This document shows, one piece after another, positions 2,835 to 24,684 of a DNA stretch of 64,000 nt (positions are counted from its first letter, which is position 1; each line of letters begins with the position of its first letter). The notes under the pieces were generated by a model, which saw only the letters and a program-made list of their open reading frames with translations, made no database searches and had not been told where the DNA came from. Source of the stretch: a virus; IMG/VR virus record IMGVR_UViG_3300020383_000006, positions 32,001 through 96,000 of that record, one strand, 5' to 3'. The position numbers and the translations under genes were made by a program.

Positions 2835-2840
2835 ATTAAG

Positions 2841-3482
2841 TGGTGGTTCCCTAGTCAAGGAGATACTATGAACCACCTGCTAACGTTATTATCAGTTTTC
2901 CACGAGACCATGTACAGCCTATCTGATTTCCTTAATAAAAATTCTATTCAGGCAGGGATTACCACTAATTAGCTTGGACACCCTCTTTTTCTTCTCAACT
3001 ACCAAACAACAAGGAGGTAATTAAGCGAGATATAACTCTCACAAGTGACAAATTGCTTTAGAATTGAATCTAGCCACAGTTAACTCAACTCCAGAGCCGC
3101 TATATTTCAGTTTTATGATGAGTGCCCTTAGCGGTAAGGACTCATTCTTTTAGGGCGAACCCATTTTACTGATTACTATGCACCTAACGTCCATGACCGC
3201 TTGCGACTTACTAATAACCAGTAAAATGGGTGGTACACTACGCAGTACCCAGCGGAATATTTGGTGACAAGGCTAATTATTCGGGCGAAAAGCTCCACCA
3301 CAGAGCTTTTCTAAGCCTTGATGGCTAGTAGCTTATTAGGCTACCGCTGCCATATTAAAGTGTGAATCGTTTGCAGTTATAACGATTAATTACAGTTGCA
3401 AATAAGGCGACGACTCCCTACCTGACTCGGTGCGGTTAACACCTGAAAACCTAAACTTGATTTAGGCTTTTAGCTATTAACT
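2841..3482 (-). ncRNA. structured non-coding region between two tRNAs, containing several candidate RNAs
   Basis: No long ORF; own promoter at 3490-3518; 20-bp stem 3159-3231 with G.U pairs only on the minus strand; two CACCA ends (3262, 2841). Confidence 0.6.
3333..3380 (-). ncRNA. tmRNA-like mRNA domain, tag ANDSHFNMAAVA**
   Basis: ATAACT GCA AAC GAT ... GCA GCG GTA GCC TAA TAA with stop codons in a GTAGC/GCTAC hairpin; no tRNA-like domain found nearby. Confidence 0.6.
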
Positions 3483-3489
3483 ACAATTA

Positions 3490-3518
3490 ATGATAATCAA
3501 TTATTTTTTAAAAGTAAA
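3490..3518 (-). promoter_or_regulatory. T4-type early/sigma70 promoter
   Basis: GTTTACT-N17-TATCAT. Confidence 0.7.
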
Positions 3519-3532
3519 CCTTTATAAGAAAT

Positions 3533-3639
3533 TTCCCTAGAGACTTGCTCGGCAAACAAGATTTTTGGGTCTGATTTTGTCATGACGAACATAAAGTTTA
3601 GCGGTTGATTAATCCACAGACAGCCTAAACTCTAGGGAA
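3533..3639 (-). ncRNA. candidate ~105-nt structured RNA directly 3' of tRNA-Arg
   Basis: Perfect 10-bp terminal stem TTCCCTAGAG/CTCTAGGGAA enclosing internal hairpins. Confidence 0.5.
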
Positions 3640-3643
3640 TAAA

Positions 3644-22755: not shown

Positions 22756-22783
22756 TTATTTTTAAATTATTTTCAAAAAAAGG

Positions 22784-22812
22784 TTTACTTTTATTTTTAA
22801 CTGATTTAATAT
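22784..22812 (+). promoter_or_regulatory. early-type promoter of the tRNA operon
   Basis: GTTTACT-N17-TAATAT with AT-rich upstream element. Confidence 0.6.
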
Positions 22813-24564: not shown

Positions 24565-24570
24565 AATACA

Positions 24571-24678
24571 GATTATTTTGTACTGGCGCAATACATGAGT
24601 TCTTTCCTAGGTTTTTTAAAAAGGCTCCGGCTTCCGCTGGCTAATAGGTTGAATGCGGGGCGTCAGTACAAAATAATT
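24571..24678 (+). ncRNA. candidate ~108-nt structured RNA
   Basis: 19-bp terminal stem GATTATTTTGTACTGGCGC/GCGTCAGTACAAAATAATT (G.U pairs on + strand) enclosing two hairpins. Confidence 0.6.
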
Positions 24679-24684
24679 TTAATT

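Follow-up and report, generated by a model that had tools for sequence, protein, structure and literature searches.

A tag-coding RNA between two tRNA genes of a marine phage

We analysed a stretch of 64,000 nucleotides (nt), hereafter the window, which comprises bases 32001-96000 of the 145.5-kb IMG/VR virus record IMGVR_UViG_3300020383_000006 (ca. 90% complete). The record belongs to a T4-like phage, whose family-B DNA polymerase shares 44% identity with its counterpart in Pseudomonas phage pf16 and ca. 36% with cyanomyophage gp43; it encodes an RtcB ligase and contains 24 tRNA genes, a set that serves all 20 amino acids. On the minus strand of the window, genes for tRNA-Arg(UCU) (3720-3644) and tRNA-Met(CAU) (2834-2763) enclose an interval of 800 nt that, on that strand, has no open reading frame (ORF) of at least 40 codons, except for one of 41 codons with a GTG start (3301-3176; 41 amino acids), which sits within structured RNA. 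An initial annotation had described here an orphan tag-coding domain of transfer-messenger RNA (tmRNA), with its own promoter and no tRNA-like domain, and our analysis supports this core reading. We consider with good confidence that the element, which we call the tag RNA, is a real non-coding RNA of the phage, transcribed and descended from tmRNA. Most simply, and as judged from alignments, it would be a permuted two-piece tmRNA gene from which the tRNA-like domain (T-arm, both acceptor strands, CCA and D-loop) was deleted, and which retained the helix-2 base, the pre-tag leader, the resume motif, a 12-codon frame, helix 5 with stops in its loop, and a stem and linker of the type found in tmRNA pseudoknot 2 (PK2). 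Nearly all the public runs containing this stretch are marine.

The features of the locus are as follows; RF00023 and RF04321 are the Rfam models of one-piece and permuted two-piece tmRNA, and R1 is a covariance model built solely from 12 tag RNAs of the enterobacterial phage family presented below.

3490-3523, minus strand: phage early-type promoter, AAAGGTTTACTTTT ... TATCAT
3444-3483, minus strand: 5′ leader hairpin, AAAAGCCUAAA-UCAAG-UUUAGGUUUU at 3471-3446, from folding
3406-3443, minus strand: helix-2 vestige, GGUGUUAACCGCACC (3443-3429), an 11-nt loop and then GGAGUCGUCGCC, from the RF04321 alignment
3375-3405, minus strand: pre-tag leader, from the sequence and minimum free energy (MFE) folds; it aligns with the leaders of the enterobacterial family
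3333-3374, minus strand: tag reading frame and UAA UAA, GCA...GCC, encoding ANDSHFNMAAVA
3321-3353, minus strand: helix-5-type two-tier hairpin with the stops in its loop, from folds and the RF00023 and R1 alignments
3250-3320, minus strand: PK2-type element, with stem 1 and an A-rich linker aligned by R1
2835-3249, minus strand: downstream structured, ORF-poor RNA reaching tRNA-Met, from folds and RNA contigs

The tag frame consists of 12 codons, GCA AAC GAU UCA CAC UUU AAU AUG GCA GCG GUA GCC (3374-3339), followed by a double stop (UAA UAA, 3338-3333); it starts with Ala and has small hydrophobic residues at its end, as in tmRNA tags. It directly follows the resume motif AUAACU (3380-3375), which agrees with the Rfam tmRNA consensus AAUAAuUGCaAACgA. 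The succession of resume motif, tag and double stop had been proposed in the initial annotation and is read at 3374-3333, and its placement of the stops in a helix-5-like hairpin also holds: they lie in the 7-nt loop of a two-tier hairpin, with an outer stem AUGGC/GCCAU (3353-3349/3325-3321) and an inner stem GUAGC/GCUAC (3344-3340/3332-3328). Likewise, the resume codon is bracketed, as had been noted, by the 7-bp stem AAUCGUU/AACGAUU (3387-3381/3371-3365). The leader segment AUUUGCAAC (3403-3395) is complementary to the resume site UGCAAA, and AAUCGUU (3387-3381) to tag codons 2-4. Where tmRNA has PK1, after helix 2 and ahead of the resume codon, the RF04321 alignment contains a weak hairpin.

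Stem 1 of the PK2-type element is CAAGGCU/AGCCUUG (3320-3314/3274-3268), with a hairpin inserted at 3311-3287, and is followed by the A-rich linker UCACCAAA (3267-3260). A possible stem 2 would be GAAUA/UAUUC (3282-3278/3259-3255), a reading of our own without covariation support. R1 matches CAAGG...CCUUG (3320-3316 and 3272-3268) with the first pseudoknot stem of the enterobacterial family, and aligns UCACCAAAUAUUCCGCU with the family linker UcAacgAAUUcGGcgCA; the corresponding linker is UCACCAAAUUCGGCGCA in SenALZ1, and the E. coli tmRNA sequence for comparison is GGUCAAACCCAAAA. Further hairpins follow downstream (3249-3232, one of 20 bp at 3230-3162, 3146-3118, and more), and the structured stretch 2835-3249 is probably part of the same primary transcript; this layout is that of the RNAs of SSU5-type phages, which extend to a tRNA gene. 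No convincing long-range closure appeared when longer stretches were folded.

As a separate observation on this downstream stretch, AUUACCUCCUUG at 3008-3020 of the minus-strand RNA resembles the 3′ end of 16S rRNA (anti-Shine-Dalgarno); on the plus strand the same positions would read as a strong Shine-Dalgarno sequence that no start codon follows.

Promoter and transcripts

The early-type promoter of the initial annotation was recovered in a scan for sigma-70-type promoters as TTTACT-17-TATCAT at 3518-3490 on the minus strand (9/12 matches). The extended 34-nt motif, AAAGGTTTACTTTT-N14-TAxxAT, occurs exactly twice in the window, ahead of the tag RNA and, at 22779-22812, ahead of the large tRNA array, for a chance expectation of 0, so that it is not a stray match to the consensus. 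Its core GGTTTACTT is also found upstream of tRNA-Arg, and this promoter type is thus common to the tag RNA and the tRNA operons of the phage.

The tag RNA is represented in metatranscriptome contigs of two independent studies (run X8, 3443-3207; X9, 3443-3250; X12, 3417-3262; X2, 3700-3203), and in runs of both studies a second piece extends from 3145 down to 2826, 2854 or 2952. In X8 and X9, which belong to one study, G3443 is the very first base of the contigs, and the depth of 52 or 16 drops to nearly 0 upstream of it. We thus take G3443 as a candidate processed 5′ end, ca. 40 nt after the predicted transcription start and just past the leader hairpin, which is probably removed from the abundant form of the RNA. 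Contigs of the locus in ENA metatranscriptomes begin with non-templated G's, followed by minus-strand-sense sequence. The RNA runs also contain a variant, 3361 T>C (plus strand), that would change His5 of the tag to Arg and retain the frame. The uncovered stretch 3146-3202 coincides with the 20-bp hairpin, and this gap is probably technical.

Because the 3′ ends of the contigs differ (3262, 3250, 3207 and 3203), no 3′ end of the RNA can be named. The initial annotation had ended the element at the TCACCA of position 3262, and this does not hold: the bases align with the conserved A-rich pseudoknot linker UCA(A/C)C(A/G)AAU, and the contigs extend past them, to 3250, 3207 and 3203, in three of the four runs. 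UCACCA (3267-3262) is therefore the linker after PK2-type stem 1 and not a 3′ CCA end. This bears on a further possibility, that the RNA is a self-sufficient, divergent mini-tmRNA whose ends pair (G3443 to A3262, GGUGUUA/UGUCACC, 6/7), receive CCA post-transcriptionally, and would stack on the 5-bp stem AGGCU/AGCCU as an acceptor-T minihelix. The MFE fold of 3443-3262 does close the ends with GGUG/CACC, RNA contigs begin at 3443 (X8 and X9), and one stops at 3262 (X12). Nevertheless, position 3:70 would be U-A instead of G-U, there is no T-loop, the 3′ bases are those of the pseudoknot linker, and the X12 contig carries no non-templated CCA, which makes a mini-tmRNA very improbable.

Two further observations concern the RNA data of the region. 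The near-perfect 20-bp hairpin at 3162-3230 (minus strand) is a break point in all four RNA runs and in the ENA assemblies. It could be a processing site of the RNase III type, or else the break is technical and caused by the inverted repeat. Secondly, a metatranscriptome contig (L287, positions 960-1032) reaches window position 3526 and continues at 3643, a head-to-tail junction (3526-3643, minus strand) that delimits a 118-nt structured RNA after tRNA-Arg, the ends of which are joined by a perfect 10-bp stem, UUCCCUAGAG/CUCUAGGGAA. The junction is either a candidate circular RNA, the phage encoding RtcB, or an assembly artefact; no such joint was present in the Logan contigs over the locus.

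Absence of a tRNA-like domain

Neither the window nor the record as a whole contains a tmRNA that ARAGORN recognises, and a lowered threshold yielded only noise. Likewise, RF00023 and RF04321 searches of the whole record retrieved only matches to the T-arms and acceptor ends of ordinary tRNAs. A search for the T-loop motif GUUCRANYC, from 200 nt upstream to 1000 nt downstream of the tag, retrieved only the T-arm of tRNA-Met. Across the genome, the only acceptor pieces able to pair with GGUGUUA, at the 5′ end of the RNA, were those of ordinary tRNAs. Neither did we find a 7-bp acceptor stem with G3-U70, a discriminator A and a 3′ CCA, the sole end-to-end pairing having U3-A70 and no CCA overhang. 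These negative results are meaningful because RF04321 performs well on positive controls, where real two-piece tmRNAs in other phage contigs reach 111.5, 116 and 94 bits. The first of these is from a T4-like relative, G006 (a 160-kb contig), whose two-piece tmRNA (L274:1320-1640; G006:C1:114827-115147) has the tag ANDSKFALAA and is yet not called by ARAGORN. The starts of the two tags are alike (GCAAACGACUCAAAGUUC in G006, as compared with GCAAACGAUUCACACUUU here; ANDSKF and ANDSHF). Around the tag RNA, the window is not syntenic with G006.

With this, no canonical tRNA-like domain flanks the tag on the record, and the corresponding claim of the initial annotation stands; its further statement that a 5′ half is absent goes too far, as GGUGUUAACCGCACC aligns with the start of permuted tmRNA genes. 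RF00023 gives a local match to the segment from the resume motif to helix 5 (model positions 86-140, 10.2 bits, E ca. 0.06-0.13), and RF04321 a match of 20.9 bits (E 0.076), where the Rfam gathering score is 47 bits for both. The RF04321 alignment begins at G3443, coinciding with the start of the RNA contigs, and GGUGUUAACCGCACC matches model positions 1-15, which form the 5′ strand of helix 2 and lie at the start of the acceptor piece. The 106 central model positions that follow, comprising the T-arm, the 3′ acceptor strand, the CCA, the spacer, the 5′ acceptor strand and the D-loop, are replaced in the tag RNA by 11 nt, after which the alignment takes up the return strand of helix 2 and continues through a small hairpin and the resume motif into the tag. 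At the sequence level, then, the tag RNA looks like a permuted tmRNA gene minus its entire tRNA-like domain, with helix 2 closed by a short loop. Since the tRNA-like domain is missing, the tag RNA is one piece and cannot be charged.

The initial annotation had considered three explanations. A highly divergent tmRNA is unlikely: there is no T-arm, G3-U70 or encoded 3′ CCA, and in the RF04321 alignment the whole tRNA-like domain is deleted. One half of a trans-encoded two-piece tmRNA is unsupported in the classical sense, as there is no acceptor piece in the 145.5-kb record and the RNA is devoid of the required 5′ acceptor strand. The third, a mimic or decoy, is favoured, either as such or as a template acting in trans.

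A looser form of the split tmRNA would have the phage tRNA-Ala (24493-24564), or the Ala-tRNA or tmRNA of the host, supply the alanine-accepting part and the tag RNA the template, the two linked only by base pairing, for example between the anticodon UGC and GCA with their flanks. The 5′ half of the phage tRNA-Ala, GGGGCUGGUUCUUGGUGACGG, resembles the tRNA-like domain of tmRNA, with a 3-bp D-stem, G3-U70 and A73, and it is the best RF00023 match of the genome (31.9 bits). Against this, its anticodon arm is canonical, it is the sole tRNA-Ala in the 20-amino-acid set, and its only complementarity to the tag RNA is the trivial codon-anticodon match. Moreover, the homologue from Vibrio phage D419 has the same loop core, UUGCA, on a stem that covaries, and among the ca. 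291 Vibrio phage records with homologues, R1 finds no tag RNA in the D419 genome, the one searched. We therefore treat it as a decoding tRNA and regard a partnership with the tag RNA in such a split arrangement as quite improbable.

The tRNA-Ala is otherwise unusual, being 72 nt long (plus strand) and lacking U8 and A14. Its homologues, ca. 80% identical and unannotated, occur in the said Vibrio phage records as well as in Proteus, Acinetobacter and Aeromonas phages, and ARAGORN missed the D419 copy. The 120-nt spacer after it (24565-24684, plus strand) has a 14-bp closing stem, UUUUGUACUGGCGC/GCGUCAGUACAAAA, and represents a small structured RNA in the tRNA array, with a weak partial match to RF04321.

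Chance resemblance

The initial by-eye reading covered 128 kb of sequence and the Rfam matches are below threshold, so one could suppose a chance resemblance in an AT-rich spacer between two tRNA genes. The pattern ATAAYTGCNAAYGAY had one match for 0.33 expected. A generic tag-like frame (GCN AAY GAN, 8-15 codons, an A/V/L end and an AU-rich upstream; defined once the tag was known) is present a single time in the 145.5-kb genome, at this locus, for a mean of 0.01 per Markov-simulated genome, with only 1% of the simulations having any. Additionally, the 224-nt RNA folds much better than its shuffles (z = -4.45). Given also the stops in a hairpin loop, the promoter, the helix-2 vestige and a top match to R1 (see below), chance is barely credible.

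Tag RNAs are widespread in enterobacterial phages

A pattern scan of viral contigs revealed promoter-led tags, ANDNQYLAVA, next to tRNA genes and with no ARAGORN tmRNA, in SSU5-like elements. BLAST comparisons with the SSU5-like tag region retrieved ca. 400 phage records in which the tag region has a match that carries no annotation, including Felixounavirus, SSU5, Ackermannviridae, Klebsiella siphoviruses and an Aeromonas phage. These RNAs are not copies of the host ssrA gene: only 394 of 5426 E. coli genomes contain a match, located in prophages or plasmids.

We read the features of this family from ten phage records and E. coli prophage copies. The conserved RNA starts with GUUUUCG and an upstream sigma-70-type promoter is readable in several members (SSU5, Felixounavirus TP1, Aeromonas pIS4-A and Tbat1_6). 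The resume motif is AUAA(A/C)UGCAAACGA and the tags have 10 codons (ANDNVFLAVA, ANEDTYLAVA, ANEEMYLAVA, ANDNTFLAVA, ANDNQYLAVA, ANDDVVLMAA and ANDDLMLMAA), a frame that is kept despite many codon changes; the tag described here has 12 codons and ends in AAVA, versus LAVA or LMAA in the family. The stop lies in the loop of a two-tier hairpin, with a pseudoknot directly after it, and several members have a tRNA gene downstream. Across helix 5 and both PK2 stems, 98% of the cells are paired, with double changes in 6 of 13 pairs, a covariation score that 0 of 500 shuffles reached.

R1 finds its best match, both in the window and in the whole phage genome, at 3425-3251 (25.3 bits, E ca. 5e-4 to 1e-3), over the full length of the model (positions 1-132). 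The same model gives 18.6, 17.2 and 15.4 bits with three genuine phage tmRNAs and 11.7 bits with E. coli ssrA, and no match above 6 bits at the tag of the phage tmRNA L062. By sequence and predicted structure, we assign the marine RNA to the same kind as the enterobacterial tag RNAs, of which it is the first marine T4-like example found.

At the 5′ end of the family RNAs, the invariant UAGUUUUCGU is the exact reverse complement of the E. coli ssrA codons ACGAAAACUA; such an antisense match could tether or block the host tmRNA. In the marine RNA, GGUUUUC (3450-3444) is paired in the leader hairpin, upstream of the start of the RNA contigs and outside the apparent mature RNA. As the antisense match refers moreover to the ssrA of E. 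coli, it cannot be used as an argument here.

The Klebsiella phages Carvaje and Kpn BU9 (L121, ca. 830-900, and L213, ca. 315-360) contain in addition a T-arm-like module, AUGGGUUCGAGUCCCAU followed by ACA(G/A)UG(U/C)UCUUUCC. In Carvaje this module is found downstream of the tag RNA, and in BU9 it immediately precedes it. Its differing position points to a movable tRNA-like fragment in the family that is not consistently attached.

Closer relatives of the marine tag RNA were sought with exact and degenerate DNA patterns, which yielded only SSU5-like RNAs, genuine tmRNAs and chance matches among viral contigs, nothing among species genomes, and only genuine tmRNAs and chance matches among metagenome contigs. 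The 225-amino-acid protein encoded downstream has no relative in the viral contigs, and the contigs homologous to it are of identical strains or not syntenic. Relatives of the DNA polymerase are at most 56% identical and on short contigs, and R1 searches of 16 of these records returned only the genuine two-piece tmRNA of G006. Strain variants on TARA metagenome scaffolds are identical over the tag module.

Possible roles of the tag RNA

The tag RNA cannot be charged with alanine or enter the A site, and SmpB (PF01668) was not found in the phage record, so that it would not rescue ribosomes alone; the host presumably has SmpB. As the tag RNA cannot function as a tmRNA by itself, an action in trans on host trans-translation is suggested, and it probably interferes with, or borrows, the ribosome-rescue system of the host. 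An RNA of tmRNA descent that acts in trans on this system is the best explanation that we can offer as a whole, at slightly less than an even chance. The action on the tmRNA-SmpB pathway would take place early in infection.

Our preferred mechanism, a tentative one, is that the phage supplies an alternative tag template, altering the end of the tag. The frame would be read, and the phage would in this way replace the usual ...LAA end with ...AAVA on unfinished proteins. That the frame may be read is suggested by the conservation across the enterobacterial family of the frame itself, its length, a hydrophobic sixth residue and a hydrophobic end. How a ribosome could come to it is more speculative: ribosomes entered by the host tmRNA-SmpB (or by Ala-tRNA) might switch to a template that is not joined to a tRNA-like domain, translate its frame and so carry a rewritten tag, a route that we consider unlikely.

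A near-equal alternative to template reading, and as such a possible if doubtful one, is a decoy or competitor: an untranslated mimic of the message and pseudoknot part of tmRNA that would dampen or protect trans-translation during infection by titrating a factor that recognises this part, for instance ribosomal protein S1, RNase R, a frame-setting contact with SmpB, or a host nuclease that targets tmRNA. This would suit an RNA that retains precisely the parts of tmRNA outside the tRNA-like domain, and no physical route for translation of the tag is known. Mycobacteriophage DS6A, furthermore, has the reciprocal half, and a similar molecule was reported to inhibit tmRNA, perhaps by titration of SmpB (PMC4131195). 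On the other hand, an intact frame is dispensable for a decoy. Yet across the enterobacterial family the frame and its length are preserved, as are a sixth residue that is aromatic or hydrophobic and a hydrophobic end, and the marine RNA likewise has an intact frame, closed by two stops within the hairpin loop.

Alternatively, the locus could be a decaying relic, a two-piece tmRNA gene that lost its tRNA-like domain and is transcribed only as part of the tRNA-Arg/tRNA-Met unit. The Rfam alignment does resemble a clean internal deletion, relatives possess intact two-piece genes, and no close relatives were found that would show purifying selection. A relic would not be expected, however, to have a dedicated copy of the tRNA-operon promoter of the phage, an intact frame with a double stop, and strong folding. 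Besides, the same architecture recurs with covariation in unrelated phage families, which argues for function over a one-off accident, and decay seems rather unlikely.

Several points weigh against an identity as a tmRNA-derived RNA acting in trans. The RF00023 and RF04321 matches are far under their gathering scores, with E values of 0.06-0.13 for a search of 1.4 kb, and the margin of R1 over genuine tmRNAs is only ca. 6 bits. No close relative of this RNA appeared in the contigs searched, so that for the marine RNA itself there is no evidence from covariation or frame conservation. RNA contigs cannot establish strand, true ends or level, and those of one sample are continuous through the promoter, as in read-through transcription or DNA carry-over. 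Finally, no mechanism is known to us that would load a stalled ribosome with a tag template detached from any tRNA-like domain.

Comparison with known systems

By definition, tmRNA is a single particle with two functions, one tRNA-like and the other message-like. Conserved, promoter-driven RNAs that correspond to the message half question the need for a template tied to the tRNA-like part or, alternatively, reveal a new phage route for tampering with ribosome rescue and protein tagging. If ribosomes do switch to an unjoined template, the two functions of tmRNA would be physically separable, a property exploited by phages. There is also a gap in annotation: tag RNAs are annotated by neither ARAGORN nor Rfam, and ARAGORN missed a genuine two-piece tmRNA in a relative.

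The tag RNA shares with one-piece tmRNA (SsrA, RF00023) the resume motif, the tag frame, helix 5 and a PK2-like stem with an A-rich linker, and differs from it in having no tRNA-like domain, PK3 or PK4, the local match being limited to 10.2 bits over positions 86-140. In the tRNA cluster of phage T4, two small stable RNAs of no known function, species 1 and 2 (rnaC/rnaD), are co-processed with tRNAs, and to our knowledge they contain no tmRNA-like tag frame. The tag RNA is likewise a small RNA among the tRNA genes of a T4-type phage, and is set beside them by description, not by sequence. The literature that we could search deals with complete phage tmRNAs and with forms reduced to the tRNA-like domain, and includes no paper on tag RNAs devoid of that domain; the enterobacterial family thus appears to be undescribed in it. 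DS6A, with a mini-tmRNA that consists of the tRNA-like domain only (tmRNA Website; PMC4131195), is similar in that a phage gene retains one half of tmRNA, and the opposite in the half retained, which has no tag frame.

Complete tmRNAs occur in 2.3% of phage genomes, many of them as two-piece tmRNAs in marine phages, such as the OM43 phage Melnitz and pelagimyophages (PMC9004378). Permuted two-piece tmRNA (RF04321/RF01850) and the tag RNA have in common a marine myovirus as carrier, the gene start (gGuugUaaacac versus GGUGUUAACCGC), the helix-2 base, the resume motif, the AND... tag and a helix 5 that contains the stop. Unlike these genes, the tag RNA has no T-arm, 3′ acceptor strand with CCA, spacer, 5′ acceptor strand GGGG.. 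or D-loop UUCGAC, and its score is 20.9 bits, where genuine members reach 94-116 bits. A plausible origin is a permuted phage tmRNA gene that lost its tRNA-like domain by deletion.

The tag RNA also resembles the enterobacterial tag RNAs (Felixounavirus, SSU5-like phage-plasmids, Ackermannviridae, Carvajevirus and others). Like them, it has a promoter of its own, is located among or beside tRNA genes of the phage, and has a leader that could base-pair with the resume site. Also shared are the motif AUAA(C/A)UGCAAACGA, an AVA end of the tag, and a two-tier helix 5 whose loop holds the stop and which leads directly into a CAAGG-type stem with a UCA(A/C)C(A/G)AAU linker; several hundred nt of structured RNA then extend to a tRNA gene. 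In contrast to them, the RNA described here is marine, has 12 codons instead of 10, a 42-nt hairpin in the PK2 loop and a longer leader with a helix-2 vestige, and contains the 5′ GUUUUCG only as GGUUUUC inside the leader hairpin. The class of tag RNAs would thus extend beyond enterobacterial phages, and environmental RNA data indicate that the marine member is produced.

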